A stretch of 64,000 bases of DNA from positions 334,924,001 to 334,988,000 of the forward strand of contig OZ024743.1 of NCBI GenBank assembly GCA_964016885.1. Direction: 5' to 3'. Made by a program: the position numbers and the translations under genes. Source of the stretch: Eledone cirrhosa. Lineage: Eukaryota. Shown here one piece after another: positions 3,541-46,172 of the stretch (position 1 is the stretch's first letter; each line of letters opens with the position of its first letter). The notes under the pieces are model-generated. The model searched no databases, was not told the origin of the DNA, and saw nothing but the letters and a program-made list of their open reading frames with translations.

Positions 3541-4537
3541 TCTTGTGTTATTTTGTTTGCCTGTATCTGTGTGCTGTGTCTAAAAAATGGTTGGGGTAGA
3601 GGGGTTGTCTGCTGATGTTAAGTGGTCTCCTGTGTTTGTTATATTCCTTGTTGTTGTAAAATGTGGTTCGGGTTGGTGGTTGTAGATTGAATGGGGTGTT
3701 CCTGTACTGCGAGTATGGGTGTGTGTTTCTATGTGCCATGTTGTATTGTGGTGTTATAGGTGGCCTACGTTGTTGGTTGTATCGTGTGGTGTGGGTTTGT
3801 TGTGTATTGTGGAAGAGAGAGTTGAGAAAATGGTAATTACCTTGCTGTCCCCCTTGAAGCGGGGAAGTTGTTACATCTATCATGGCGGTGGTATCTTTTC
3901 CCTATGTTTGACGATGAGGCATCCGCGTAGTAGTTGAGTGATTTGGTATGGTGTCTCCTTGAAGGGGGAAAGTTGTAAATGTCATTCTGGGGGAGATGAT
4001 TTCTTGGGTTTTTGTTCCTTCTTATGGTAGCGAGGTTGGGAAGTTCATCTTCGGTGCGGTGCTTCCTTCTTCGTTTGTTAGAGGCTTGGGGGTTTGAGAA
4101 GTTGTGCGGTTTAGTTATGGGTTTTCCTATTTTTATGAACGGGTTATTGGAGGTGTAATCCGTTTGAAAAGTCGATTCATAGTGTAGGAACCAAGCGGCA
4201 CTTTTTTCCCAGCGTTGAAGGGATTTCAGTTCTTCTCTGTTGCAGTCCCCTTTCCATAATTTGGAGATCTTCTCTACCTTGGGGCCTTCAGTTTTGTTGT
4301 TGATTTCCAGGAGGATCTCTTCATCGATGGTTTCGATTTTTTCCTCATTTGTTTGGGCCCTCAGTTTAAGAAGTTCAATATCTGTCTTCATTTTTTCCAA
4401 TGCCATTCTTTCCCTAAGGTGTCTTTGAGGTTCGGGTTCATTTGGAATGGACTTTATTTGTAGTTTATGGGGGAGAGTTAGAGGGGTTGAGTTAAGCCAT
4501 TTTTCATATATCTCTGCTTTGTTGTGATTTTGTATCA

Positions 4538-4688: not shown

Positions 4689-7600
4689 TGGAAACATTTG
4701 AACAGGAACAAAACAGAGAGGCAGTACAACGAATGTTTATTAATTTCACGCTCTAGAGAGTGGGGTGGTGGTGGGGAACGACGTTTCGGGCATAAGCCCT
4801 TCCTCAGGTGAGAAGTGTGTGGGAACAGAGTTCAAAGGGTGTGTAGGGGAGTGGTGGAGAGACATATAGCGAAAGGAAACGGTGCGAATGAAAATAAAAA
4901 TAAAAATAAAAATAAAAATAAAAATAAAGCATGATCAAAATACAAAGAATGAATTAAAATTAAATAATAAAGCATGATCAAAATAAACTGAAATTAATAG
5001 GGGGGTAAAACAGGTGGTGGAAGGGTGTGGGGTGTGTAGGGGTGGTGGCGGGTGGAGTGGGAGAGGGATACGGGGTGTCCGAGCGGGGAGGGCTGAAGGT
5101 GGTGTGTGTGTGTAGGTGTACGTGTGTGTGTGTGTGTGTGTGTATATGTGAAAGTAAGGGTTGGGGGAAGAACGGGGTTGCATGTTCAGGAAGAGGTGTG
5201 TGTGTGTGTGTGTGGGGGGTTGTAGGTCGGAGTGTCTGTGCGTGTGTGGATAGAGGGATGGGGGAGAGGAATCAGGAGGCTGAGGGTGTAAATATGTGGT
5301 GGAAAACACGTGTGTGTGGGGTTTAAGCGTGTTGTGGGTGTAGGTGGCGTGTGGAGAAACAATCTTTTTGGGGGTGTGTGTGGGTGAGTTATATAGGTGA
5401 TTCCGTAAGAGGATGGTTGAAAAGTTGGTAAAATCCTATGATGTTTAGTGGATTCTGTGGTGGTCAAGTTCCACATACGAGTATTCCATGAAGAGATGGT
5501 CGGAAGAGGAGAGTTGTGGGGTGCGCGCGCAACAGGAAGTGGTCAAGCAGTGGGAGTGCTCTGTGTCTGTTTGTGCTGGGAGGTGGTCAGAGGGCATAGC
5601 AGCAGTCGGTGGAATAGTAAAGGGGCGAGGATGGGTAGGTGTGAGAGTTGGAGTGAGGAGGGTGTGTGTGTATTAGTAGAGGTGTTACTGGGATGAGTGA
5701 ATGTGGAGCGAGGGTGTGGGTGGAGAGGGGAGAGAAGGGTGTGTGTAGTTCAATGGAGGGAGTGTGGTGTACTGGTGTGTGTGTAGTTTGATGAAGGGGT
5801 GTTAGTGGGTGTTAGTATACGGGAGGTGGGGAAGGGTTGGATGCAGGTGTGAGTGGGGGTTAGTGGTGGTAGGGTGTGTAGAGTTGGTGGTGTACGAGGG
5901 TGTGTGGGTACGTGTGCGTGGGGTTGGGGGGTGTTAGTGATGTTAGTTGAGTGTGGGGTGGGTGGTGTAAGTGGGTGCGTGTGTTCGTGTGCTTGGGGTC
6001 AGGAGGTGTTAGTGAGGTTAGTTGCGGGGTGGTGGGATGGAGGTGTGGGGGTGAGAGGTGTGGGGGTGAAGGTTAGTGGTGGTAGTAGGGTGTGTGTTTA
6101 GTGTGAGCGCGTGTATATATGTGCCGGTGGGTGTGTGCGTGTGATAAGGAGAGGGGAGGAGGAGAAGAAGGGAGGGATGTTAGTATGTTAGTTGGGGAAG
6201 GGTGGTCGGATGAGGGGTGGAGTGGAGGTGTTAGTATTCGTAGTTGTGGGGTGGACGTTGAAAAGGAGGGGTGTGTTAGTGGTGTTAGTGGGGGATAAGT
6301 GTGGGGGGGGGGGGTCGAAGGCTAAAGGAATAAGGGTGGGGAGTTCAGGCCGGGGGGAATGTGTGGGTCTGTAAGATGAAGATTGTTCTTTGTTCGACTC
6401 TAAGGCGATTGGCGGGTGTTCCGTGGCATTGGAGTAGGCCACAGACTGTGAGATGGCGTGCGGAATGTCCAGGGCCAGCAAAGTGGCGGGCGATGGGGGA
6501 ACTACCACCGAGACGAATATCCCGGAGGTGCTCAGTGAATCGGTCCGCCAGGCGACGTCCCGTCTGTCCGACATAAGTCGCGCTGCACTCCGTGCAGCGA
6601 AGTAGTCCGTAGACTAGGTTGGAGGAGGTGCAGCGGAAGGCATGCCGGACAGAGAGAGAGTGGCCGTTGGGACCCTGGAAGGTGGTGGTGTTGGTGATGT
6701 GGGGACAGGTGTTGAAGCGGGGCCTAGTACAGGGAAAGGAACCGGGGGGGAGCCTGGTTTGGGGGGGAGCTGTGGACGAGGAGGGTGCGGAGATTGCGTC
6801 GGCGTTTGAAGGAGGGGAGTGGTGGGGTTGGGAAGATGTGGGAGGTGGAGGGGTCGGACTGGAGGCGTCGGAAGAGGCGGCGGATGGTGCGGTGGAGGGG
6901 TGCGGTGGAGGGGTGGTAGGTGATGGGGAAGGGGAGACGGTGGGTGTGCGGTGGCGTGGGGTGAGGGTGGTGGAGCGGGGGACAGCACGGGCGCGGGTGA
7001 GAGCGGTGTGGACGAGAGAGAGGGGGGGGTAACCTCTGCGGATGAAATAGCTGACTAGGGAAAGAGCCTGAGACTCGAAGTCAGCATCTCGGCTACAGAG
7101 GCGGCGGATCCTGAGAAGTTGTGAGTAGGGAATGGAGTGTTTAGTGTGGGTGGGGTGGGAAGAGGTGAAGTCGAGGTAAGAGTGGGAGTCGGTGGGTTTG
7201 AAGAAGGCGGAGGTGACGAGGGAGTGGTGGGAGGGTCGAAGGCGACGGAGATGTCGAAGAAGTGGACGTGGGTGGTAGAGATAGAGGTGGTGAAGTGGAG
7301 GGAGGGGTGGAAGGAGCAGAAGAAAGAGAGAAAGGAGTCGAGCTGTTCTCGGGTGAGGGTCGTGGATCCGATACAGTCGTCAATGTAACGACCGTACAGT
7401 TCGGGCGTGGGGCCGGTGTACTAGGCAAAGATTTGGGCCTCAACATGGCCAACAAAAAGGTTGGCATAGTTCGGGCCCATTCTTGTACCCATGGCTACCC
7501 CCGTGACCTGTTGGTAAAACTCACCCGAGAAGGAGAAACAATTGAGGGTGAGGACCAGCTCGGCGAGGCGAAGGAGGGTGGGTGGAGGGAATAGGGGAGG

Positions 7601-7878
7601 GGCGAAGGTCGAGGTAGTGTTTGAGGGCGCGTAGGCCGTCGGCGTGGGGGATGAGGGTATAGAGGGACTTGATGTCTAGGGTGAAGAGGAAGGGCTGTGG
7701 GCCGGGTGGGTAGGTGAAGGAGTCGAAAAGGCGCAGGGCGTGGTTGGTGTCGGAGATGTGGGAGGGGAGGGTGGTGACAAGGGGGCGAGGATGGAGTCGA
7801 GAAAGGCGGAGATGAGTTCGGTGGGGCAGTTGCAAGCGGAGACGATGGGGCGGCCGGGGTTGTCGGGTTTGTGGAGTT

Positions 7879-7880
<2 letters not shown>
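4689..7880 (-). mobile_element. Second Neptune-like PLE, 5'-truncated, C-rich coding strand, ~1.6 kb low-complexity 3' UTR
   Basis: [61 protein letters not shown] and CTECSATYVGQTGRRLADRFTEH across several frameshifts (~6346-7880). (TA)n on both flanks. Confidence 0.9.
4772..4815 (-). ncRNA. Minimal hammerhead ribozyme motif
   Basis: Minus strand: ac CTGAGGA a gggc ttat gccc GAAAC GTC gt. Stem II 4 bp, palindromic ACGT stem III, weak stem I. Confidence 0.75.
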
Positions 7881-7936
<56 letters not shown>

Positions 7937-8273
7937 TATATATATATATATACATACATATGTATATATATACATATCTATATATACATATGTATATATA
8001 TATATATAGAGAGAGAGAGAGGGAGAGAGGGAGATACATATGAATATAAATATATCAAGTATATTTGCTTGGAGACTGGTGTTTAAATCATCCAATTCTC
8101 TTAATGTAACAATCATTTTCTTCACTGCTGACCATTCATCCAGTAAAACAGTTGTCGATTAATCAATTCATTGATCTGTATAACAAACAGTTTCAATTAT
8201 GTCTTAGGAGATTATGAAACACCGCCCTTTTTCGTCCGGCTTTTACACATTCTCATCAATGTATTGAGTTTTA

Positions 8274-8460: not shown

Positions 8461-8620
8461 AGATCAAAAGATGTTTAAAAGAGTTCCAAGTATTTTATTA
8501 TGCGCATTTCAAAAACAAATATCATCATGGGATGATATTTGGTTTTCATCAGATAAAATAGGGAGACATGATATGAAGCTTAAAAACACTTGCGAGCAGT
8601 GAAGTGTAAAATCAACATAT
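8455..8620 (-). mobile_element. Solo 3' end of the PLE family at 40818-46142, with intact hammerhead (8491-8560)
   Basis: Aligns by eye to 40818-40987. Minus strand: tattttat CTGATGA aaaccaaatatcatc ccat gatgatatttgttttt GAAAT GCGC ATA ataaaata. Confidence 0.88.
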
Positions 8621-10472: not shown

Positions 10473-13135
10473 AATTATTATTATTATTATTGTACTTTGA
10501 GTCTCAGTCATTGATGTTAGTTAACTGGAAAGTTTGTTGAAATGAATATCAAGCCACTACCTGCAGCCTCAGATATTCAGGTTGTATCGGAGGGTTGTTG
10601 CTGTTCCCAGCAAGCATGCTTTTTGAAGCGTTCCAAAAAGCGTGAAGGGGCCAATTTTCTTTAACCATCTCTGGAAACGTTTCGAGATAGTACCTAGTGG
10701 CAGTTCCAAATCCTTTTTACCTCCCACTTTAAGTCCTGGTATCGGTTAATCCCCCCCCTTCCTTCTCTTGCACTCTCGGAATTTACTGCACTTATGGCAT
10801 TCCTACTGTTCAGATGTGACTTTAATACGCTCCTTACTCTCCGAATATATTCAGTTCTTATCAATTCCTTCGTTCTTTTGTTCTTGATGTCATCAAACTC
10901 CAGAACACTCAAATACTCGTATCCTTCTTCAGAGTCAATTTCCTTTATCATCTCACCTGTTGGTACCTGGATTCCGTTACTTCTGCTCAACTTACCCCTC
11001 TTCATCACAATGACTCCACACTTACTAATACCAAATTGCATACATATATCATTGCTGAAAATACGGACAGTGTCAACAAGCACATCCAACTCCTTCTCAC
11101 TCTTCCCGAAGAGCTTAAGTTCGTCCATGAAGAGGAGGTGATTGATGGTAAGCCCTCCCTTTCCCAACCCGTATCCTGCTCTCACTTTTCGCAGTACACT
11201 GGTCAGGGGCAACAGGGCAAGGACAAACAACAGAGGGGACAGACTATCTCCCTGGAAGATACCTCTCTTGATCTTCACGCTTCCCAAGGATTCTCCAGTT
11301 GATGTTAACTCTGTTTCCCAGGACTTCATACTTTTGCCCAACAACTGTCTGATGTTATCTGCCACCTTGAAGATCTCCAGGCTTTTGGTGATCCAAGAAT
11401 GAGGCATCATGGCAAATGCCTTTTTGTAGTCTATCCATCCCATGGCAAGACCAGTGTGTCTCCTCTTGCAATTCCTCATTACCATCTTATCAATAAGTAA
11501 CTGGTCCTTTGTACCACGTGACTTCTTTCGGCATCCTTTCTGTTCGTCCGGTAACAAGTTGTTTGTGTGGAGGTGATGGTAGATTTCCTCAGACATAATG
11601 CTTGTCAACAGTTTCCATATTACGGACAGACATGTGATAGGTCTATAGTTGGTAGGATCATTACCCTTGATTCGGTCTTTCATTATCAGAACTGTGGTAC
11701 CTTTTGTCAACCACTCTGGTACCTCACCTGACATCAAGCAGTCATTGAACATGGTTGTCAGTTTCGGGTGGAGGGATGTTATATTTTTAATCCAATACCC
11801 CTGCACACCATCTGGGCCTGGTGATTTCCAGTTGGTTAGTTTTTTGGCCTGCCCCTTTAAAGTTTCAACTGTGATACTCAAATCAGTTTGTTGGTGTGCC
11901 TGTTCACTAATCTCCTTCTGTACTGTCTCAACCCACACTGCCTGGTCATTATGTTTAACATCCTGCTCCCATATTCCTCTCCAGAATGTTTTAGTTTGTT
12001 CCGCCTCAGGGATCAAGTCGTTGCCTCTTTCTTTCCCTTCAAGCTGTCCAAACAGCATCTTCTGGTTGTTCTCGAACATGCGGTTCTTTCTATACTGACT
12101 GACTCTGTTCTCGTATCGCCTGATTTTTGCACTCTTTGCTACAATGCGTTGCTTCAGTTCCTCTACGATAATATTTAGCTTTTTGCTCCTAGTTTTGTAC
12201 TTTATTTCCAGTCTATTTTTAGTGTCTATGTTTTTTTGTGTCCCATTCAGTAGGGACTCAAGCTTTCCAATGTCATTTCTTATTTCCCTGATTTGGCCAC
12301 TCAGTCGTTTCTTCCACCAAGGTTTTGATCTTTCTTGTCTGTTGTTTCCTCTCGCTTTTATACCAAGTAGTTTCCTCACCGTATTTGCTGTTGCTTTGAG
12401 GATATTATTGCACTGGTGAAGGCTCCTCGCCTCAAGGTATGTGATCACTTTGTTGACCTTAGCTGTTGTTTCTTTTAACTTTTTCCTGTCTACTAATCTT
12501 AGGTTCATAGGTCTCCCACTATCATTGTTCAATTCATCTACCACTAAGTTCAGGATATCAACCAAATCTTGTCCTAGCCCGTCAGCATTCATCTCCTCAG
12601 TGGCCGTATTATTTATCTCAGCATTCAGATCATTGTCTGCTTCGGATTGTTCCTCCGTTCTCTCAACCTCTTTACCTTCATTTCCCACTGGCTCGTTTGC
12701 CTGGCATAATCCACTCTCCATTTCCAACCTAATCTCTCTGCTCAGTTCCTCCAGTTCCAGCTCGCTTATCCACCCATTAGTTCTTATTACCCGAGCCTGC
12801 CCGGCCAATTTTTGTTCATCTAATTTAAATAGACCAATCTCGTTCCAGATGTTATGCATCCGTTTCCTATAGCCTTTCTCCTTGGGGTTACTCTTCAGGT
12901 AACATTGCATAACAGTTCTATTCAATTCTTTCGTCCAGTTGGTTCTGGTCCCTTTCCTTCTTCTTCTTCCGCCGACACCAGCAGTATTTGGTTGACAGCC
13001 AGGTCCCTGCTGCTGAGCCAGGGAGCACCTGTTGGGTGAGAGTCTGTCACATGACATTCTAGTCTCCATTTCACCGTTATTCGAACTGTTTAGGTTCGAC
13101 ATTTAAACACTCTTATCAAGGATTGGCGAATGTAT
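10473..13135 (-). mobile_element. R4/Dong-like non-LTR retrotransposon, internally deleted, (TAA)n 3' tail
   Basis: 802-aa ORF followed by a remnant C-terminus (LQKACLLGTA) and (TAA)n at 10473-10490 on the minus strand. Dong elements are known to target TAA repeats. Confidence 0.88.
10694..13102 (-). CDS. R4/Dong-like reverse transcriptase ORF, probably inactive
   Basis: WKSPGPDGVQGYWIK, NYRPITCL, EQKGCRKKSRGTKDQLLIDK, GIFQGDSLSPLLF, NHLLFMDELKLF (catalytic DD reads DE). The post-RT region appears deleted at AVNS/ESAREG. Confidence 0.88.
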   Translation of the reverse strand: MSNLNSSNNGEMETRMSCDRLSPNRCSLAQQQGPGCQPNTAGVGGRRRRKGTRTNWTKELNRTVMQCYLKSNPKEKGYRKRMHNIWNEIGLFKLDEQKLAGQARVIRTNGWISELELEELSREIRLEMESGLCQANEPVGNEGKEVERTEEQSEADNDLNAEINNTATEEMNADGLGQDLVDILNLVVDELNNDSGRPMNLRLVDRKKLKETTAKVNKVITYLEARSLHQCNNILKATANTVRKLLGIKARGNNRQERSKPWWKKRLSGQIREIRNDIGKLESLLNGTQKNIDTKNRLEIKYKTRSKKLNIIVEELKQRIVAKSAKIRRYENRVSQYRKNRMFENNQKMLFGQLEGKERGNDLIPEAEQTKTFWRGIWEQDVKHNDQAVWVETVQKEISEQAHQQTDLSITVETLKGQAKKLTNWKSPGPDGVQGYWIKNITSLHPKLTTMFNDCLMSGEVPEWLTKGTTVLIMKDRIKGNDPTNYRPITCLSVIWKLLTSIMSEEIYHHLHTNNLLPDEQKGCRKKSRGTKDQLLIDKMVMRNCKRRHTGLAMGWIDYKKAFAMMPHSWITKSLEIFKVADNIRQLLGKSMKSWETELTSTGESLGSVKIKRGIFQGDSLSPLLFVLALLPLTSVLRKVRAGYGLGKGGLTINHLLFMDELKLFGKSEKELDVLVDTVRIFSNDICMQFGISKCGVIVMKRGKLSRSNGIQVPTGEMIKEIDSEEGYEYLSVLEFDDIKNKRTKELIRTEYIRRVRSVLKSHLNSRNAISAVNSESAREGRGGINRYQDLKWEVKRIWNCH

Positions 13136-15629: not shown

Positions 15630-17641
15630 GTATTTACTATATAGAGAGAGAGGAAGGGGAGAAGAATTAGGAAGTAGAGGGACAAACGGGGATGGAGGGA
15701 GGGGTAAAGATGGAAGGATTCCTCGATCAGTTTTGATTCGTAGACTTGATGTCGTCAATTTACAGTGTAGGGAGTTAAAGATAATTAAATCGTTTATAGT
15801 AGGAGAGAGATAGAGAAGGGGGAGGAAATAGAGAGATAAATATATATATATATAAAAAAAGAGGGAAGAGAAAAAAAAAGAAGAAAAGAAAAGAGAACAA
15901 AAAAAGGGGATAGAAGAAAATAAGAAAACGAAAAAACAGAAAATGAATGAAGGAGGAGAGAGGGACATAAGTATTGGTTACTCTGGGTAATTAAAGGGGT
16001 TAGATTCAATAAGAGGGTAGAAAGTTTAAGTATATTCAGTTTGTCAGGTGGTAGTATTAGGAGGTTAAGGGTTCGATTTGCACTTGTAGTGCGAAAACTT
16101 TTCTTTAAGTCTATGGTTGCAATAAATTAATCTTTCAATTTTATTGTTGAGTAACTTATTCTTCGAACTCAAAATGTGAAACAGTTCAAGGTCACATAAC
16201 CGAGAGCTTCTCATACCACTCCGATATGCAGGCGCGTTCGATAGTTTTTTTTCCAATTCAGGGTGTATTGATGGTTACTTTCCCTCAGTTGCCAGGTCTT
16301 GTTCGCAAGGGTAGTTACATAACGATGCTGGGAATGTTTCATTGCGTAACGATGGGTATACCAACGAGCTTTAACTGTATTCCCAGTCGCCCCGATGTAA
16401 TACCACTTCTGATTGTCTGATTCGACCGTGCATTGGTAAACCAGGTTAGAATGCATACATTCATTACACAATGGATATGTTTCAGGTAGGTCGCAGTTAC
16501 AATTCTTGTCATGGTTCTTCTAGTGGGTGGTTGTGTATTAGATATTCTGTTGTGTTCGATGGTAATTGTATTGTTATTGTTATAAATTTGTGTTCCGGTG
16601 TTGTTACGTATCTTTTTAGCGTTGAGCATCTTAATGTGTGCATCTCTGTTTGGTGCAGTGGAGTAAGATAGTCTGATAGATGTAATGTTAGGGATTTTGC
16701 TGTATCTATGTGAATCTGGAAAGTGCTTATTTATTATTCTAAAGAAGGTAGCGGGTAGGTTGGTACCAATAGAGGTGTTAAATATGGGGTTATACCAAAT
16801 ATATTTTCTACTGCGTGACCTCTTTGATTTTGATGTATTTCTATTTTCAGTTTAATTGTTAGTTCTAAACTTAAATGGGTGTGTGCGTGTGTTTCTGGAG
16901 TTTGTGTTATGCCTATTCGTGTGTGCTTTGCGGAGGCTTTCATCTATATATTCTACTCTATCTAGGTGACCTGCCTTATCTAGTGTGGTATTGTAGTAAT
17001 CCGCGTGTTCCTCAAAGATTTGTCGGTTAAACGAGAGGCGGGAGATCCTAAGGGGTATGCTGCGTGGAACGGACTTAATTATGGAGATTGGGTGGGTCGA
17101 ATTACAGTTGATGTATGCTAAGTTTTCATTATTCTTGTGAAAAGGTCTTATAAGTCCCGTAGTTAGGTTAAGCATCGCGTCTAGAAAGTTAACTATTTTA
17201 GTGCTATATTCATACGTTATGCTAAGGCTTAGTTTCTCGAGAGTCTTTTTAATATTCTTGTGCAGCCTTTCTATGCTCTGGTTATTTGGGTTCTTAACTA
17301 GAAAAAGGGCGTCATCTCTGTAGATTCCACCATGAAGGTAGCTAAATTCTCTGGGCTATGTAAATACCTACTAAATCCGTGACCTGAACCGAGTCATTAG
17401 CCCCCATCGCGATGTCAAAGTCATCTAATCTATCCTTACGTTCCCAATATTCGTTTTCAAATTCAATTATTGTTTTCCTAGCAGTTAATATAATGTTTAT
17501 CTCGTCGTCTGTCAGGTCAAAATTGGCTTTGACGAATGCTAAGGCTTTATCCAAGGTATTGGGTTATATAGAGGAGTAATAGTCGTTAATGTCAAATTGT
17601 ATAAACTTAGATACTTTTTTGTTAGCTATACTGTTAAACCA
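15630..17641 (-). mobile_element. Degenerate 5'-truncated PLE (GIYRDD-type RT + GIY-YIG), related to the 41-46 kb family
   Basis: KFIQFDINDYYSSI, ILTARKTIIEF, FDIAMGANDSVQVTDLVGIY, GGIYRDDALF, VNFLDAMLNL and NLVYQCTV..YYIGATGNTVKARW, with stops and frameshifts. Confidence 0.88.
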
Positions 17642-30114: not shown

Positions 30115-31711
30115 TAACAACTAACAGTGCTGCGATCGAATGTGGCTTTTTAGCCCAGCCAATGATCTACAATGCCTTGCACAGAGTCGGCAACCAAAAC
30201 ATTCACTGGGAATAGTCGGCTGTGGTTGGAATTCGTGTACTTTTGCATGTCGCTTGAGCCCTCCTGCTGATTTTCATTCTCTACCACATGTTTGGCAAGC
30301 ATGATGAGTAGCATCTCCAACAACAGCCTGGTAGTCAACCACTGGTCTTACTTTATGACTGCGAAGATGACTTTCGAGTCCAGCTTTGCTTAGGCAGAGT
30401 CTCGCACAGACGCTGCATGTCAGCACCATAGGAGGACCCTCGCCGTCTGGAAGTGCAACAGCAATGCCCTTCCTCACATCCCGCTATACTATCTCGTGTG
30501 CGATTCGAGATGCCTCAAAGGCAACTTTTCCCTCATATACAGTCTTTCTCCATTTATTACGATCAGCAGCAATATTTTCCCATGTATCAGCAGCGATGTT
30601 AGCGTCTTTCAGAGAGGCTTTCAAGGAATCCTTATACCTCTTTTTTGGTTTATGTGGCGGTCGTTTTCCTTTAACCAACTCTCCATAGAAGAGTTGTTTT
30701 GGTATTCTAGAATCCTTCATCCTGGCAAGGTGACCACTCCAACGGAGTCGTTGCTTAAGCACAAGAGCTTCTATACTGTCACACATAGAGCTTTCCAAAA
30801 TCTCGACATCACTGATGTGGTCCCTCCAGTGAACGCCATGGATCCATCTGAGACACATCTGATGGAAACGCTCCAATTGCTTAAGGTGGTGTTGATATGT
30901 GACCCAGGTCTCGCAAGCATAAAGAAGACAAGCGAGTACACATGCCCTGTACACCTTTACCTTTGACCTCCTGCATATGCCTCGCCGACCCCAGAGTCGC
31001 CTTTCTAGCTTTCCGAAAGCATCACTTGCTTTCCTAATCCTAATCCTAAGTGAGATTTCACTGTCAAGGTTGCCGTATCGATTGACAGTGCTTCCCAGGT
31101 AGACAAACTGATCAACCACTTCAAGTCGTTTGCCATACACATAGATGTTTGGTTCAGTGTACTGCTTACTAGGGGCAGGTTGGTACATGACGACGGTTTT
31201 CTTGAGACTGACAGTCAAACCCAGGGCAGTGCAAGCGTCAGAAAATGCATTCAAAATGTGCTGCATATCACTCTCTGTGTGCGCTACAATATCGCAATCA
31301 TCTGCATACAAGAGGTCTCTTATGATTGATGTAAATACTTTTGTCTTTGCAGCAAAGCGCCTGATGTTAAATATGCTGCCTGAGGTTCGATATCGGATGT
31401 AAACACCATGCTCGCAATTCCTGAATGTAATACAGAAAACCATTGCAAAGTATATTGCAAACAGGGTCGGTGCTGGAATATCCCCCTGTTTCACTCCATT
31501 TTTTACTGAGATAGGCTCCGACATGTTACCTCCGACATTAACCCAAGCCTTCATGTCGTCATGGAAAGACCTAACTAAAGCAAGGAACTTATCAGGGCAA
31601 CCAAGTTTCTGGAGAACCTTCCATAATGCATCTCTGTTGACAGTATCGAAAGCCTTTGTCAGATCGACAAAAACCTGATACAAATCCAAGCCTTGTTCAA
31701 TGCACTTCTCC
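29742..31711 (-). mobile_element. 5'-truncated RTE LINE (RT + three C2H2 fingers); 3' UTR interrupted by microsatellites
   Basis: FVDLTKAFDTVNR, GVKQGDIPAPTLF, LLYADD, FVYLGS, LLYACETW, LRWSGHLARM, PKQLFYGEL; 3' terminus at 29742-29790. Confidence 0.92.
30121..31689 (-). pseudogene. RTE RT ORF continuing in frame through two stops into three C2H2 zinc fingers
   Basis: Stops at 30484 and 30274; fingers CSVC..HLRSH, CQTC..RHAKVH and CRLC..HIRSQH; final TAG at 30121. Confidence 0.88.
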
Positions 31712-32658: not shown

Positions 32659-32727
<69 letters not shown>

Positions 32728-32875
32728 GGGTGGTGGATTGGCAGTATCGGTAGAGAGTCGGACACCATGCTTTGAAGCATAGAGTTACGTCCCTTTATGA
32801 TCTTCGTTCAAATCCCGCCGGGGTTAACTTTTCCTTTCATCCTTACGGGGTCGATAAACTGGTACTTAAAAAAAA
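32728..32875 (+). mobile_element. tRNA-derived SINE, 3'-truncated, ending in an A-run
   Basis: gggtggtggattggcagtatcggtag...gttcaaatcccgccg...cctttcatccttacggggtcgataaa. Confidence 0.85.
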
Positions 32876-33497
32876 GGTTTGTCTGTGTGTTTACATACAG
32901 AATAGCTGGATACTCACAGTAAAGTAACCAGTGAAAGACTTGGTACATCTACATATGTATACGTGTTTGTATTCATATGCATACTAGTATTTCAGTATGC
33001 ATATGTAGATGTACATTTTTTAACTTAATTGTTTAAGCGTCAGTCATACAAAAGTGAGTTACAAACGAAACGAAATTTAATTTCGTTTCGTTATTTGTTT
33101 TTATCGTCTCCGTTGAACCGGTACGTACTCACACTCTATGCAAATTAGTCTGCTCACTACTAATTTTCATAGAAAAAGCATATAACGATATGTGCTTTTA
33201 CGATTCTCCAGAAAGGCCGGTAGATAGGTAAATATTGCTGATGAGTTGTAACAACAACGAAACTAGTTCAATATTCCTTGTCTGGCTTTCTGGAGAATAG
33301 AGGAAAGGTGTTTCCTCAAAAACCAGTATGACTCTAAAAACCGGTTTGTCTGTGTGTTTACATACAGAATAGCTGGATACTCACAGTAAAGTAACCAGTG
33401 AAAGACTTGGTACATCTACATATGTATACGTGTGTGTATTCATATGCATACTAGTATTTCAGTATGCATATGTAGATGTACATTTTTTAACTTAATT
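32876..33497 (+). mobile_element. Retrozyme-like non-coding tandem unit, family A1 (467 bp period, ~1.3 copies)
   Basis: 32876-33030 recurs at 33343-33497; one hammerhead; ends in (TA)n. Confidence 0.8.
33231..33275 (+). ncRNA. Type I hammerhead ribozyme (family A1)
   Basis: aatattg CTGATGA gttg taacaa caac GAAAC TA GTT caatatt; outer stem attctccagaaaggccgg (33203) / ctggctttctggagaat (to 33298). Confidence 0.93.
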
Positions 33498-33661
33498 ATA
33501 TATATATATATATATATATACTTAGGTTAATAGGAGTTAGGTATTGTATACCCGTGTCCCATTAAGGTATTGGCAGCATAATAATTAGCTCTATGCTTTG
33601 GAGCAGAGCCGTATATATGAAAAAGAACACAAGAGCGTCTACAACATCAACAGATTTTTAT

Positions 33662-33710
33662 TGGCTTACAATGTTTCTTCCTTACGTAACCGTAGGATTC
33701 GTCAGAGCTA
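33662..33710 (-). ncRNA. Hammerhead motif in a PLE-type 3' end (33521-33860)
   Basis: Minus strand: tagct CTGACGA atcctacg gtta cgtaaggaa GAAAC ATT GTA agcca. Confidence 0.82.
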
Positions 33711-33935
33711 TAAAAGGGGTTTGATTGGTGTTATGTACTCTACCAACCAAATATTAAAGAACAAAGAGTAAAGAGAGTAAAGAGCAAAAGTGGGTGACGA
33801 TAAGTCTAATTTGGGTGAGGGAGGGTGGGGTGTGGGTCCTTGTTTTTGGAGGCTGTCTGGACAGACAGCCTCCAAAAATAATGGTCGCTTCTAATAGGGT
33901 ACGTCAAAATTATTTATAAAACTGTTTATATATTG

Positions 33936-34000
33936 TATTTTATCTGACGAAGGCATGCCATATTTTAATTTGGTATCCCTGAAATATGTATAATAAAATA
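33936..34000 (+). ncRNA. Hammerhead motif in a PLE-type 3' end (33879-34130)
   Basis: tattttat CTGACGA aggcatgcca..tggtatccct GAAAT ATGT ATA ataaaata. Confidence 0.85.
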
Positions 34001-34127
34001 AATATGGTTTTATAAATATAGTTTCCATTTATTTAATATCGTATATCTACTCCAAAAACTTGTCGAGTGCTTTATATCAGTTATAAAATATTTACTTCTT
34101 GTATCCCAAGAATTTTAAATAAAACTT

Positions 34128-34183
<56 letters not shown>

Positions 34184-37919: not shown

Positions 37920-38051
37920 CATATATATATACATAAATATATATATATATATATATATTAAAATAACAGATTAAAGAGCTTAAGCAAAGAAACGCTGCTT
38001 TCATCCTTAACGGGATCTTCTGAAACTGTCTTCACATTTATATATTATTAC

Positions 38052-38155
<104 letters not shown>

Positions 38156-38184: not shown

Positions 38185-38287
<103 letters not shown>

Positions 38288-38524
38288 CATGCTACTGTAC
38301 GTCTGTATACATATATGTATGTACGTATACATGCATACTTACATTTAAGTAAGTGCCATACTAAGAGTGAGAAATGAAATTTCGTTTTCATTTTGTTTCA
38401 ATTTATCGTTTTCGGTATGCCTGACCGATTTAACTCACTCAATATGCAAATTAGGCTGCTCAGCCGTTAATTTTCATAAGGAAAGTATATACTTTCGAAC
38501 GTTCAACTATCTGGCAGATGGGTA

Positions 38525-38569
38525 AACGGTGCTGATGATAGCTAACAAGCTTGAAACTAGTACATCGTT
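38525..38569 (+). ncRNA. Type I hammerhead ribozyme (family A2, copy 1)
   Basis: aacggtg CTGATGA tagc taacaa gctt GAAAC TA GTA catcgtt. Confidence 0.92.
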
Positions 38570-38727
38570 CCTGTGTCAGTGTTGAACAAAAAGGTGACGT
38601 GGTTGCCTTAACACCGTATGGCATAAATTCAGGCTGTTCAGTTTGTTTACAAATGAACAAAGCGACGTTATAATAAGCGCCGCTAAACTGATACGTGCAT
38701 ATATGTATGTGTACCTGTATGCATATG

Positions 38728-38758
<31 letters not shown>

Positions 38759-38998
38759 GTGCATGCTACTGTACGTCTGTATACATATATGTATGTACGT
38801 ATACATGCATACTTACATTTAAGTAAGTGCCATACTAAGAGTGAGAAATGAAATTTCGTTTTCATTTTGTTTCAATTTATCGTTTTCGGTATGCCTGACC
38901 GATTTAACTCACTCAATATGCAAATTAGGCTGCTCAGCCGTTAATTTTCATAAGGAAAGTATATACTTTCGAACGTTCAACTATCTGGCAGATGGGTA

Positions 38999-39043
38999 AA
39001 CGGTGCTGATGATAGCTAACAAGCTTGAAACTAGTACATCGTT
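38999..39043 (+). ncRNA. Type I hammerhead ribozyme (family A2, copy 2)
   Basis: Identical to 38525-38569, 474 bp downstream. Confidence 0.92.
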
Positions 39044-39477
39044 CCTGTGTCAGTGTTGAACAAAAAGGTGACGTGGTTGCCTTAACACCGTATGGCATAC
39101 ATTCAGGCTGTTCAGTTTGTTTACAAACGAACAAAGCGACGTTATAATAAGCGCCGCTAAACTGATACGTTCATATATGTATGTGTACCTGTATGCATAT
39201 CTATATATATATGTATATATATATATATATGTGCATGCTACTGTACGTCTGTATACATATATCTATGTACGTATACATGCATACTTACATTTAAGTAAGT
39301 GCCATACTAAGAGTGAGAAATGAAATTTCGTTTTCATTTTGTTTCAATTTATATATATATATATATATATTAAAATAACAGATTAAAGAGCTTAAGCAAA
39401 GAAACGCTGCTTTCACCCCTAACGGGATCTTCTGAAACTGTCTTCACATTTATATATTAATACTATACACACACACA

Positions 39478-39576
<99 letters not shown>

Positions 39577-40624: not shown

Positions 40625-40737
<113 letters not shown>

Positions 40738-40855
40738 GTAGGAGGTGAGTTTTATTGTATAAAGCAATGCAGATATCGGATAAGAAGCACTCTACAGTTT
40801 GTAGGATTGGAGTATGCATAATATAAGATCAAAAGATGGTTAAAGGAGTTCCATG

Positions 40856-40925
40856 TATTTTATTATGCGCATTTCAAAAACAAACATCATCATGCAATAA
40901 TATTTGTGTTTTCATCAGATAAAAC
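40856..40925 (-). ncRNA. Hammerhead ribozyme near the 3' end of the left arm
   Basis: Reverse complement of 46035-46104. Confidence 0.88.
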
Positions 40926-41940
40926 AGGAGAACATGATATGAAGGCTAAAAAACACTTGTGGATAGTGCAGTTTTAAATCAACATATGAAAAGTGGTTTT
41001 AGATTGATGTGTGATATTGGGAAAGATATTTTATTTAGAGAGGGGGGGGTGGAAAGGATGAAAAGGGAAGGAGATGAGAGGGAGAGATGGGTGATAGAGA
41101 GAAAGAGATAGTTTTTATAACTGAGAGGAGATATATTGTTTTACATAGAGAGGTTGAAACCGTTGGAAGATAATGTATAAATTAAAAATTTTGAAAATTA
41201 ACGAAGGGAGGATATGTGCGAGGAAAAAATATTTTATTTAGGGAGGGGGGTGGAAAGGATGAAAAAAAGGGGGAGGAGATGAGAGTGAAGGTGGAGAGGG
41301 AGAGATGGGTGATAGAGAGAAAGAGATAGTTTTTATAACTGAGAAAAAGTTATATTGTTTTAACATAGAGAGGTTGTGAACCGTTGGAAGATAATGTATA
41401 AATTAAAGGAATTTGAAAATTAACGAAGGGAAATTATGTATGAAGATAGAGAGAAAAAAATAATAATTGTGGATGAATATTCTAACGTCAAAAAAAGAAA
41501 TGTATGTATTGTGGCAATTTCAAAATTAACGAAGAGAAAAATTATTAAGGTTTGTGTGTAGAAGGATTTGAGAAAAATAATGTGAAGTTAAAGTTTGTAT
41601 ATTGAAGGAATTGATAATATATGCGAATAAAGAGTTGATATGTATTAATAATGAGTTCGTTGATGGGGAGAAAAAAATAATAATAAATTAAGGATGAAAT
41701 TGAGATTAAAAAGATTTATGATAGAGAGAAAAAATAATAATGATTGCGGATGAATATTCTTAATGTCAAAACAACAAATGTATATGTTATGATTTTACAA
41801 GGTGAAGATAGAATGAGGGTAATGAGTAAACTAGTATTATAGAGTGTATAAATTTAAAGTAAGGTAGATGGGTATATTTTAAAGAGGTGTATGTATATGT
41901 GCCTTTGAGAAAAGATTCTAAATTGATAAAGAATTGAATA

Positions 41941-43754
41941 TTAACTGTATACTTTGTGAAAAGTTCTATGGAATTTATGCAGGCAGATAGAAAACAAATC
42001 TGTGCGTCTATTTATTATAGAATCTAGGTTAGAGATAATGGTAAATTTTTCATTTAGGCAGAGATTACAGATTTTAGATAGAGAGCTGTTCAAGTATGAG
42101 GATGCAGAAGAAATCTTCTTCCAAAAGATGGTATATTTAATGTTTTTGTCTTTTAAGGACCATATGAGTTCTGAGAGAGCAGTGTTAGTTCTTTTAAGTT
42201 TGTGTTTGAAAGATGAATGATGATTATAGAGACGAGCTTTAAAAGAGGTGGAAGTGGAGCCAAAATAGGTGAAGGAATTGGTGCTAGTTATAATTTTACA
42301 TTCATAAATTAAGTTTTTATCGAGACAATGGTTGTTGAGAGGACATTTATTTTTAATGCGGCAGTTGCAATTAGAGAGATTATTAATGAGTGATCTAGTG
42401 TTATCTATAGAAGGAATTGGATTGGAGAAGTTGTTTGCGATAGGAATAATAGGAATAATAGTTTCTTGATTTAGAGTTGGATTATGAACATTTAGCGAAG
42501 TTGTGTTTGACGTTGTATTTGGGTTTACAGAAGTTAGCCTAGGGTTTACAATGACGTCGGGAGTACTATTACTGTTATTATGAAATTCAATATTGGAAGG
42601 AAGAGATTTAGTATTTAGTATTTTATTGTTGTGTTTAGAGATGATGTTGGAAATATTGGAGGATGTAGAATACGAACATTTGATGGTGTGTTTGTTAAAT
42701 ATTTTACTATAGATATGTGAGGGAGGGAAGCATTTATTTAAGGCACTAGAAAATAATTTAGGAATATTGTTATTAATAGAGATGGAGAAAGGAGCATTAT
42801 ACCAGATTATGTTTTTGTATCTAGGTCTTTTATTAAAATTATTGGAATGGTCATGATTAATTATTCTACTGTAAGTTTTTCTAGAATTTGTTTCTTTACT
42901 ATATTTGATTTTATCTGGATAGCCGGCTTTAGAAAGTGCGTTATTATAGTAATTGGCGTTAGCATCAAAGATGTTTTTATTAGAAGATATGTTAGATATT
43001 CTATTTCCAATATTATTAACTATAGCATTCTTGATATTGGTAGGATGGTTAGATTTAAAGTTAACATAATTAAGGTTCTCATTGTTTTTATGGTAAGGGT
43101 AATATAGGCCAGTGTCAAGATTAAGAGATACATCCAAGAAATTAGCTAGTTTGATACTATTATCAAATTCAATTTTTAGGTTATGTTGGTTAAAGAGATT
43201 ACGTATATTGTTCTTAATAATATTAAGGTTAACTATATTGCAATTTAGGATAGTAAAGAGTCCATCGTCACGATAAATTCCACCGCGAAGTTGAGGAATT
43301 TTCTGACTCAAAGAGTTCAAAATGAAGATACCAATTAAATCAGTCAATTGGGATGAATCGGATGCTCCCATTGTGATGTCGAAGTTGTTAGAGGTATCGG
43401 CTCTGGTCCAATATTCGTTGTTGAACTCTAGGATGGTTTTACGTGCGGTGAGGATGATGTGAAGTTCATCTGTGGTGATGTCAGAATATTTAAGTGCGAA
43501 AGATAGAGCATTATTGAGAAGTGAAGGCGAAATGGAGGAATGGTAGCTGGCAATATCAAATTGAATAAATTTTAGTTTGTTTTTATTATCCAATTTGTTG
43601 AACCAGCCAATCACTTCAGAAGTACCAAACCATAAATTTAGGTTCAAAGAAGAGAAATTAGAACTAACCTGTGGGATAATTCTATCCAAGATGGCTTTAC
43701 TAACAACCCCCAGATCAGATTTAGAGGGGGCGATTAATCTAACAGGTAGTTCAG
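41941..43754 (-). CDS. PLE RT-GIY-YIG, uninterrupted but N-terminally truncated
   Basis: PVRLIAPSKSDLG, FIQFDIASYHSSIS, FDITMGASDSSQLTDLIG, GGIYRDDGL, ANFLDV, IIWYNAPFS, CNCRIKNKCPL..C and NLIYEC..TYFGST. The track ORF's first ~30 aa are junction-derived. Confidence 0.93.
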
Positions 43755-43768
43755 TACCTGTTAGATTA

Positions 43769-45019
43769 AACCAACATAACCTAAAAATTGAATTTGATAA
43801 TAGTATCAAACTAGCTAATTTCTTGGATGTATCTCTTAATCTTGACACTGGCCTATATTACCCTTACCATAAAAACAATGAGAACCTTAATTATGTTAAC
43901 TTTAAATCTAACCATCCTACCAATATCAAGAATGCTATAGTTAATAATATTGGAAATAGAATATCTAACATATCTTCTAATAAAAACATCTTTGATGCTA
44001 ACGCCAATTACTATAATAACGCACTTTCTAAAGCCGGCTATCCAGATAAAATCAAATATAGTAAAGAAACAAATTCTAGAAAAACTTACAGTAGAATAAT
44101 TAATCATGACCATTCCAATAATTTTAATAAAAGACCTAGATACAAAAACATAATCTGGTATAATGCTCCTTTCTCCATCTCTATTAATAACAATATTCCT
44201 AAATTATTTTCTAGTGCCTTAAATAAATGCTTCCCTCCCTCACATATCTATAGTAAAATATTTAACAAACACACCATCAAATGTTCGTATTCTACATCCT
44301 CCAATATTTCCAACATCATCTCTAAACACAACAATAAAATACTAAATACTAAATCTCTTCCTTCCAATATTGAATTTCATAATAACAGTAATAGTACTCC
44401 CGACGTCATTGTAAACCCTAGGCTAACTTCTGTAAACCCAAATACAACGTCAAACACAACTTCGCTAAATGTTCATAATCCAACTCTAAATCAAGAAACT
44501 ATTATTCCTATTATTCCTATCGCAAACAACTTCTCCAATCCAATTCCTTCTATAGATAACACTAGATCACTCATTAATAATCTCTCTAATTGCAACTGCC
44601 GCATTAAAAATAAATGTCCTCTCAACAACCATTGTCTCGATAAAAACTTAATTTATGAATGTAAAATTATAACTAGCACCAATTCCTTCACCTATTTTGG
44701 CTCCACTTCCACCTCTTTTAAAGCTCGTCTCTATAATCATCATTCATCTTTCAAACACAAACTTAAAAGAACTAACACTGCTCTCTCAGAACTCATATGG
44801 TCCTTAAAAGACAAAAACATTAAATATACCATCTTTTGGAAGAAGATTTCTTCTGCATCCTCATACTTGAACAGCTCTCTATCTAAAATCTGTAATCTCT
44901 GCCTAAATGAAAAATTTACCATTATCTCTAACCTAGATTCTATAATAAATAGACGCACAGATTTGTTTTCTATCTGCCTGCATAAATTCCATAGAACTTT
45001 TCACAAAGTATACAGTTAA
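43769..45019 (+). CDS. Inverted duplicate: RT C-terminus + GIY-YIG endonuclease
   Basis: Peptide from NQHNLKIEF to the stop is identical to the minus-strand copy. Confidence 0.9.
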   Translation, partial: NQHNLKIEFDNSIKLANFLDVSLNLDTGLYYPYHKNNENLNYVNFKSNHPTNIKNAIVNNIGNRISNISSNKNIFDANANYYNNALSKAGYPDKIKYSKETNSRKTYSRIINHDHSNNFNKRPRYKNIIWYNAPFSISINNNIPKLFSSALNKCFPPSHIYSKIFNKHTIKCSYSTSSNISNIISKHNNKILNTKSLPSNIEFHNNSNSTPDVIVNPRLTSVNPNTTSNTTSLNVHNPTLNQETIIPIIPIANNFSNPIPSIDNTRSLINNLSNCNCRIKNKCPLNNHCLDKNLIYECKIITSTNSFTYFGSTSTSFKARLYNHHSSFKHKLKRTNTALSELIWSLKDKNIKYTIFWKKISSASSYLNSSLSKICNLCLNEKFTIISNLDSIINRRTDLFSICLHKFHRTFHKVYS

Positions 45020-46034
45020 TATTCAATTCTTTATCAATTTAGAATCTTTTCTCAAAGGCACATATACATACACCTCTTTAAAATATACCCATCTACCTTA
45101 CTTTAAATTTATACACTCTATAATACTTGTTTACTCATTACCCTCATTCTATCTTCACCTTGTAAAATCATAACATATACATTTGTTGTTTTGACATTAA
45201 GAATATTCATCCGCAATCATTATTATTTTTTCTCTCTATCATAAATCTTTTTAATCTCAATTTCATCCTTAATTTATTATTATTTTTTCTCCCCATCAAC
45301 GAACTCATTATTAATACATATCAACTCTTTATTCGCATATATTATCAATTCCTTCAATATACAAACTTTAACTTCACATTTTATTTCTCAAATCCTTCTA
45401 CACACAAACCTTAATAATTTTTCTCTTCGTTAATTTTGAAATTGCCACAATACATACATTTCTTTTTTTGACGTTAGAATATTCATCCACAATTATTATT
45501 TTTTTCTCTCTATCTTCATACATAATTTCCCTTCGTTAATTTTCAAATTCCTTTAATTTATACATTATCTTCCAACGGTTCCCAACCTCTCTATGTTAAA
45601 ACAATATATCTTTTTCTCAGTTATAAAAACTATCTCTTTCTCTCTATCACCCATCTCTCCCTCTCCACCTTCACTCTCATCTCCTCCCCCTTTTTTTCAT
45701 CCTTTCCACCCCCCTCCCTAAATAAAATATTTTTTCCTCGCACATATCCTCCCTTCGTTAATTTTCAAAATTTTTAATTTATACATTATCTTCCAACGGT
45801 TTTCAACCTCTCTATGTAAAACAATATATCTCCTCTCAGTTATAAAAACTATCTCTTTCTCTCTATCACCCATCTCTCCCTCTCATCTCCTTCCCTTTTC
45901 ATCCTTTCCACCCCCCCCTCTCTAAATAAAATATCTTTCCCAATATCACACATCAATCTAAAACCACTTTTCATATGTTGATTTAAAACTGCACTATCCA
46001 CAAGTGTTTTTTAGCCTTCATATCATGTTCTCCT

Positions 46035-46104
46035 GTTTTATCTGATGAAAACACAAATATTATTGCATGATGATGTTTGTTTTTGAAATGCGCATAATAA
46101 AATA
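46035..46104 (+). ncRNA. Hammerhead ribozyme near the 3' end of the right arm
   Basis: ttttat CTGATGA aaacacaaatattattgcatgatgatgtttgttttt GAAAT GCGC ATA ataaaa, ~40 nt before (TA)n. Confidence 0.9.
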
Positions 46105-46134
46105 CATGGAACTCCTTTAACCATCTTTTGATCT

Positions 46135-46172
<38 letters not shown>

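Follow-up and report, generated by a model that had tools for sequence, protein, structure and literature searches.

We put at about 0.8 the probability that the A1 repeat of Eledone cirrhosa is a young repeat of high copy number that encodes no protein, has kept the fold of a type I hammerhead and likely travels as a non-autonomous passenger of Penelope-like elements (PLEs), i.e. as a non-LTR retrozyme. It was characterized starting from a single copy in a window of 64,000 nucleotides (contig OZ024743.1, positions 334,924,001 to 334,988,000), and all positions given below without a locus name are those of the window.

The A1 element and its hammerhead ribozyme

The A1 copy of 622 bp (32876-33497, + strand) consists of one 467-bp unit plus 155 bp that are repeated, i.e. 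1.33 copies. The two instances of the repeated part (32876-33030 and 33343-33497) lie at a period of 467 and differ at 1 of 155 bases, and this repeat comparison agrees exactly with the coordinates, the 467-bp unit and the 1.3 copies given in the preliminary description. Pattern search located a single hammerhead core in the copy, at 33238 (+); a ribozyme was also looked for on the minus strand and none was found. No ORF of 120 aa lies over the element. The host DNA of the window is AT- and microsatellite-rich, in an assembly of 3.0 Gb. Features of the element and its surroundings are presented in Table 1.

Table 1. Coordinates of A1, its structured parts and its neighbours in the window
Feature	Position	Strand	Remarks
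SINE-like high-copy neighbour, unrelated to A1	32727..32875	+	cut short at the A1 5' junction
A1 insertion	32876..33497	+	single arm, 5'-truncated, 1.33 units of 467 bp, one hammerhead
"Tail" between S and L, ~74 nt	33031..33104	+	contains a 13-bp hairpin, 33064-33092
Structured domain around end L	33054..33132	+	closing helix 33054-33059 / 33127-33132
Fixed end L	33104 (+303)	+	homologous end of the window's A2 copy
Octamer-like word	33138..33145	+	kept in A1, A2, most A3 and C units; opposite hairpin arm varies
Outer extension of stem I	33203..33298	+	13-bp perfect arms 33203-33215 / 33286-33298
Type I hammerhead	33227..33277	+	GG 33227-28 / CC 33276-77, UA bulge 33229-30
A1 stem I	33231-33237 / 33269-33275	+	
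A1 hammerhead core	33238-44	+	
A1 stem II with 6-nt loop II	33245-33258	+	
A1 stem III palindrome	33262-33267	+	U17 at 33268
Hairpin just 3' of the ribozyme	33300..33317	+	A1/A3 double changes, pairs 111:122 and 114:119 of alignment A2
5' strand of long-range helix	33326..33332	+	pairs with 33043-33049 of the next unit (columns 59-65 / 288-294)
Fixed 3' end S	33487..33497	+	in the loop of a small hairpin (full at 33024-33037, first unit)
(TA)n target at the A1 3' end	33498..33520		
A2, sister family	38284..39352	+	474-bp unit, 2.3 copies, two hammerheads; single arm ending at L
Coding Penelope-type insertion	40735..46140		head-to-head, minimal hammerheads 40918(-) and 46042(+); ORF motifs and layout

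The neighbour at the 5' junction of A1 is probably a SINE; there, 9 nt of its own sequence recur in inverted orientation (32859-32867) along with an A run, and the junction looks like end-joining repair. Beyond the TA tract of A1, the stretch 33521-34131 holds the end of an oppositely oriented element with a minimal hammerhead at 33705(-) and a second minimal hammerhead at 33944 (+), whose element ends in a TA run at 34132, so that the TA target is shared. The A2 copy can be aligned to A1 over the whole unit at ~62% identity (0.37-0.38 differences per aligned base between the A1 lineage and A2 units), which supports the earlier view of A1 as a diverged sister of A2. The same 130-bp element end plus (CA)n(TA)n is present on both sides of the A2 copy (37958-38090 and 39371-39500), and these repeats look like a large target duplication. 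Many hammerhead-like cores of other families, often with a palindromic stem III, occur in the window, at 8552(-), 22362(-), 26842(+), 33705(-), 33944(+), 37267(+), 40250(-), 40918(-), 46042(+), 46275(-), 49725(+), 50278(+), 54842(-) and 57804(+).

A1 has the core CUGANGA, GAAA, an NUH triplet and three helices with stem I open, as expected of a type I hammerhead, and the hammerhead consensus predicts a cut between 33268 and 33269. Stems I and II, loop II, the stem III palindrome and the downstream hairpin (loop 33356-33361) are as described earlier, and the A2 stems quoted along with them are present. Two elements that had been called conserved are so only in part. For loop II (taacaa), UAACAA is indeed found in A1 but the family-wide loop is only UAANRA, position 4 being hypervariable (6 parsimony steps) and position 5 being G in lineage C. 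For the bulge (agatRggta), the UA is conserved, whereas the GG is base-paired with CC and the letters on the 5' side are variable. Position 17 is U in A1 (GUU triplet) as compared to A in A2 (GUA), and a natural GUC variant exists in A1b/A1c. The hammerhead region folds with a z of -5.6 (0 of 200 shuffles).

At gathering level, Rfam gave no match in the whole window. At E-value level the sole ribozyme match is HH9 (RF02275) at 33220-33291 (E 9.7e-9; 38.6 bits, below the gathering score of 52), the miRNA matches being TA-rich hairpins far under the cut-off. In the HH9 alignment GGUAA / UCC forms the internal loop of stem I and UAACAA is loop II. Homology to HH9, together with the near-invariant UA bulge and four near-invariant loop II positions, makes a loop I-loop II contact in A1 plausible; both partners are (nearly) invariant and no covariation is visible between them. 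A1 resembles the extended type I hammerheads of HH9, newt satellite 2 and Schistosoma type, as far as they are described in the consulted part of PMC6155905, in its 6-bp stem I with a UA internal loop and its 4-bp stem II with a 6-nt A-rich loop II, as seen in the HH9 alignment. Unlike HH9, it scores 38.6 bits against a 52-bit cut-off and its stem III is a bare palindrome rather than a 3-bp hairpin. A1 works like RF02275 but falls outside its score cut-off.

Conservation of the RNA structure

Two alignments were compared. The first, of 24 rows, covers A1, A2 and A3-A6; double changes are present in 7 of its 14 pairs and 88% of the cells are paired, as against 27-47% when the pairing is slid. 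Older relatives were added by pattern search, namely lineage B (310-bp unit; L183/L219) and lineage C (L244/L258/L261). In the second alignment, of 17 hand-picked rows from four deep lineages with a few deep branches carrying most of the events, double changes occur in 11 of 16 pairs, 90.8% of the cells are paired (31-45% when slid) and the covariation score is 0.57 against 0.20 in shuffles; the search patterns themselves determined the core letters, the outer stem III pairs and, in lineage B, loop II.

A tree was constructed from flanking sequence alone; on it, 10 of the 11 structure pairs that vary on both sides change together on one branch while keeping 90% pairing or more, as compared to 3 of 588 other column pairs. 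One stem I pair is found in five states (UA, GU, UG, AU, CG). At its centre, stem III reads UA, GC or AU and is palindromic in every case, which makes sense only if two ribozymes pair with each other, as in the dimer model. Dimer pairing is described for such short stem III helices in the consulted parts of PMC4209133 and PMC7229834, and A1 may likewise be cleaved as a dimer through its covarying palindrome. Position 17 is U, C or A, all of them cleavable letters, throughout the 17 rows. The basal stem II pair is a mismatch in 12 of the 17 rows, the G-C of A1 being exceptional. A search for further stem II variants in the ACTAGT clade gave 1 and 15 matches, mostly decayed copies or unrelated sites, and therefore this clade has only two stem II lineages.

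Outside the ribozyme, RNAalifold predicted 77 pairs over the whole unit (15 rows), 21 of which carry a double change. These 21 include a helix with strands ~185 nt apart, which could be located in 14 of 21 units and was confirmed there. The long-range helix between 33326-33332 and 33043-33049 can be formed only in a multimer or a circle and shows two double changes across lineages. An A-U to G-C double change is seen within lineage A3 in the closing helix of the end-L domain, in a comparison restricted to the correctly located A1 and A3 rows (the 3' strand was misplaced in 9 of 21 units and missed in 1). The outer stem I extension of A2 differs from that of A1 in sequence and register. The preliminary description had proposed selection on RNA structure, to be checked by covariation and by folding the unit as a circle. 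Such selection is supported both inside the ribozyme (11/16 pairs) and outside it (21/77 pairs), with compensatory changes that hold over four deep lineages. The A1 unit folded as a circle gives a z of -11.4 (60 shuffles) and forms a chain of local hairpins, not a rod, and the sense circle is stabler than the antisense circle in 20 of 21 units and equal in 1.

The octamer-like word at 33138-33145 is absent from the 5 U2 snRNA upstream regions examined. An snRNA-type promoter was rejected, the best of 20 comparisons of U2 with A1 or A2 being equalled by 5 of 200 shuffles and lying in TA-rich sequence. A tandem array of U2 snRNA genes with a 2.2-kb period was located at G000:C3 307.35-307.45 Mb (L148-L157).

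Insertion ends, copy number and arrays

Insertion loci were sampled non-randomly, as best matches or first matches along contig C1. Counted from the predicted cut, the 3' ends of A1 lie at +229 to +234 (S) or at +302/303 (L), and those of A2 at the homologous +259 and +313 to +318. S or L accounts for 110 of 118 visible 3' ends, and 97 of these 110 abut a TA-type run. In run X1, which may be the assembly's own sample, a loose end at 33104 followed by TA was found in 12 contigs. The 5' ends are scattered and coincide with the cut site in only 1 of 63 (A1) and 1 of 56 (A2) cases. Among the 118 3' ends the sole one at the predicted cleavage site belongs to an A1 arm that runs into (TA)n (L003:1110-1139). 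Genomic DNA holds nearly no direct trace of cleavage. S and L would correspond to two starts of reverse transcription.

Two-armed, head-to-head insertions make up 53 of 84. Both ends lie at S or L in 36 of the 48 that were tallied, with 34 S+L, 2 L+L and no S+S pairs; in A1 alone, all 21 are S+L. The window carries a single S arm of A1 and a single L arm of A2, and the different phases of the two copies, which had been pointed out earlier, are real and explained by the two fixed ends. The arms of one insertion are closer to each other than the between-insertion median in 15 of 16 A2 and 20 of 24 A1 cases, and either arm may be the longer one (L025 and L011 as against L030). Both arms thus stem from one template or source, neither being copied from the other, although subsequent conversion between arms may also be compatible with their similarity. 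Of 112 complete arms, 99 run across the predicted cut site, 40 of them twice; the template was therefore a circle or an uncut multimer, which the insertions do not distinguish. As an uncut multimeric transcript accounts for the read-through equally well, read-through is no proof of a circle. An A2 arm and an A1b arm, both long-ended, are joined head-to-head with 5-nt microhomology at L102:1320-3160 (G000:C2 near 60.80 Mb), where either one insertion was made from two different RNAs or a second insertion deleted a short arm.

Exact cores number 23,129 in the genome (reversed control 0). A-clade cores with A, C or G at position 17 number 31,973 (control 2) and A1-lineage cores with U17 number 6,194 (control 0). 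In loci L001-L030, 74 of 78 A1-type cores are identical to the window copy over stems I-III; given this and the 6,194 U17 cores, GUU is a family trait and not damage. The best 40 of 744 candidate copies of A1 are ~100% identical, and A1 has thus spread recently. RNA editing was considered and rejected, as 34 young A1 insertions, a small sample, show no A>G excess (singletons 6 A>G vs 7 T>C; shared variants 7 vs 5).

Short arms of 4-7 units are almost uniform. In long arrays (three, with stretches of 30, 14 and 35 units compared), variants recur in multi-unit blocks, indicating DNA-level duplication, and rolling circle as the sole origin of the long arrays was rejected for this reason. The A1 family is a retroposed RNA and, at some loci, also a satellite.

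Origin of A1 and alternative explanations

On the features examined, A1 works like the metazoan non-LTR retrozymes and belongs to them. It is a tandem repeat without coding sequence, in the size class of 150-450 bp or more, carries a single type I hammerhead in each unit, is abundant and lacks an LTR. The retrozymes of PMC7229834, in the consulted part of that paper, are likewise GC-poor, non-coding repeats whose tandem units measure a few hundred bp and contain one type I hammerhead each, and they number tens of thousands of copies; HHR_Amex1 of the same source shares the 1-bp stem III with a palindromic tetraloop, and HHR_Amex2 the U-U at the base of stem II seen in A2 and B. Unlike the coral, mussel and axolotl retrozymes described there, A1 has a unit at the long end of the range (467 bp) and a GUU triplet, and it occurs in two-armed S/L insertions, none of which is described for retrozymes in that part. 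Such fixed-end insertions of retrozymes were not found described in the literature searched, with subscription journals and supplements outside its scope; the supplements of PMC7229834 and PMC4209133 list more invertebrate hammerheads, among which relatives are possible.

The architecture of the insertions points to PLEs. As described in the consulted parts of PMC8557442 and PMC3846280, PLEs leave an inverted 5'-truncated copy and a tail on one end only, with a bias towards (TA)n. The A1 family shows the same layout of 5' truncation, head-to-head inverted arm, one-end tail and AT-rich or (TA)n target, the window copy being single-armed and short-ended. According to the consulted part of PMC11167929, in vitro experiments with a purified PLE protein showed nicking of both strands at AT-rich DNA and cDNA synthesis from two internal sites, which define the tail; as in A1, the hammerhead lies upstream of the two internal 3' ends. 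Unlike PLEs as described in these sources, A1 lacks an ORF, its hammerhead is canonical with putative loop contacts instead of minimal, and its tail of ~60-74 nt is longer than the published 30-40 bp; in the 46 loci compared, no coding element has a pLTR that matches A1.

Vertebrate retrozymes have been proposed as non-autonomous PLE derivatives by Li, Clavereau and Pollet (10.64898/2026.07.22.740005). In the consulted part of that work multimers, dimers and monomers coexist, as here, and later growth by unequal crossover is proposed. The evidence given there is co-occurrence and pLTR similarity, whereas for A1 it is the insertion architecture. By their rule of at least two hammerheads the window copy with its single one is not "active", while many family members have more.

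The two head-to-head coding Penelope-type insertions compared (40735-46140 and L312) both combine a short end with a long one, each lying in a TA run. In the former, which has no Pfam match, the left arm is long-ended and the right arm short-ended, both in (TA)n; it serves as a comparison only. Tails are ~45 and 80 nt in the two coding insertions and about 60-74 nt in A1. The genome contains 10,595 GIY-YIG candidates, some in open frames of 844-1096 aa, and a search of the window and of 46 GIY-YIG loci out of these 10,595 for an autonomous element bearing an A-type terminal repeat gave none. Candidate intact Penelope-type elements were seen at L298, L299 and L300 (GIY-YIG open frames of 938, 844 and 1096 aa). 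A coding Penelope-type family at L297, L301, L302, L307 and L312 combines long open frames with a hammerhead that has a palindromic stem III and U17; U17 recurs in the genome, being found also in A1, A6 and C. At least four broken coding Penelope-type ORFs lie in the window (1264-3617, 6345-8158, 16339-17355 and 41941-45019).

Taken as a retrozyme carried by PLEs, A1 would spread in four steps. Tandem copies would be transcribed, and neighbouring hammerheads would then pair via the palindromic stem III and cut after GUU, aided by the UA-bulge / loop II contact, to give a unit-length RNA that is perhaps closed into a circle by a host ligase; RNA circles are documented for coral, mussel and axolotl retrozymes in the consulted part of PMC7229834. 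A Penelope-type RT/GIY-YIG protein would nick both strands of a (TA)n tract and start cDNA from the same RNA twice, one strand using S (+229 to +234) and the other L (+303), and reading through the ribozyme site would yield two 5'-truncated head-to-head arms, or one if the other is lost, as with the A1 copy of the window. Some insertions would later grow to satellite-like arrays by DNA-level duplication of multi-unit blocks. The opposition drawn earlier between a replicating RNA and satellite DNA thus appears as a false choice, since Penelope-type RNA-templated insertion would be followed by DNA array growth and the minus strand has no ribozyme. A1 does not emerge here as a self-replicating RNA or as a new kind of replicon.

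Alternatively, the hammerhead may be a structural relic or rarely used, uncut multimers from the tandem arrays being mobilised as linear RNA by a PLE protein and the fold being kept mainly for protein binding. We regard this as unlikely, though it is the strongest of the alternatives. Genomic ends do not pile up at the cut site, and GUU is found in the most active lineage; this is an allowed NUH triplet (consulted part of PMC3138052) but is missing from the table of natural hammerheads in the part of PMC1636495 consulted. Hammerhead mutants of an anole PLE insert normally (PMC11167929, consulted part), 8 of 9 Xenopus retrozyme dimers showed no cleavage in vitro (10.64898/2026.07.22.740005, consulted part), and the long arrays are possible sources of such multimers. 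Against a relic, the catalytic core is retained over 35-40% divergence together with the UA bulge, with loop II and with a stem III palindrome that covaries, while position 17 moves only among the cleavable U, C and A; related retrozymes also cleave and circularise in vivo (PMC7229834, consulted part).

Far less probable is a viroid-like RNA that replicates from RNA to RNA and leaves the genomic copies only as reverse-transcribed footprints. The whole-unit structure, conserved with many G-U changes over several diverged lineages, would suit it, as would certain sequencing runs labelled as other organisms. Runs X4, X5, X6, X8 and X12 contain A1 pieces of 97-99% identity, mostly at low depth. 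In X6 two contigs (343 + 183 nt) form a uniform unit-length cycle of an A1 variant at a depth of ~188, which matches window positions 33031-33460, and X4 has one contig of 496 nt. However, X4 and X5 also hold the SINE-like neighbour of the host, which indicates either that nucleic acid of the host was carried over or that a related animal is involved. The A1 pieces are most likely due to carry-over, and horizontal spread cannot be claimed from them. A Hi-C run of the organism named for X6 (X22) gave 0 reads in 1/100 parts, which is too little to be a test. Against a viroid-like RNA, a ribozyme in both polarities is not found, the minus strand lacking one; the circle is a chain of local hairpins and not a rod; and young copies are nearly identical instead of forming a mutant cloud.

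Mobilisation by a LINE (RTE/CR1-type, several in the window), as for a SINE, rather than by a PLE is similarly improbable. RT fragments are present at 10694-13102 and 30484-31710, and LINEs also give 5' truncation and inversion. The two arms of A1, however, each join the target by a separate 3' end that lies at one or the other of two internal sites, which is the layout of the coding PLE-type insertions of this genome, and no 3' tail common to A1 and a LINE was seen in a non-systematic look. Least probable of all is that A1 represents ordinary satellite DNA, spread through DNA recombination or via extrachromosomal circles, with hairpins as mere DNA palindromes. The higher-order variant blocks of the 30-, 14- and 35-unit stretches, typical of unequal exchange, fit this reading for later array growth only; for dispersal it is contradicted by the dispersed short insertions, the two fixed strand-oriented 3' ends, random 5' truncation, TA targets, ribozyme-specific conservation and G-U-tolerant pairing.

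Returning to A1 as a PLE-borne retrozyme, it may be, with a likelihood somewhat below even, an abundant RNA circle whose conserved fold offers a dimeric Penelope-type enzyme a landing pad with two sites. Copying of one circle would then proceed from the two nicked strands simultaneously, with the hairpin loop S as the start for one of them and site L for the other. That the circle also exists free of DNA in other organisms, as run X6 might suggest, has at best the faintest likelihood. If the landing pad is real, A1, A2 and A3 would provide a compact, naturally covarying set of substrates for the unsolved two-strand insertion mechanism of PLEs, and the same set would serve for studying the rolling-circle copying that has been proposed for retrozymes. 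Both retrozymes and the idea that they depend on PLEs have already been published, the published link being co-occurrence and terminal-repeat similarity; the strict pairing of a short and a long end on two arms from one template is a mechanistic footprint. The compensatory changes supply a ready secondary-structure model of the ribozyme and of the start-site domain. Two questions are thereby made testable, namely whether PLE enzymes copy animal retrozymes and how PLEs make inverted, tailed insertions.
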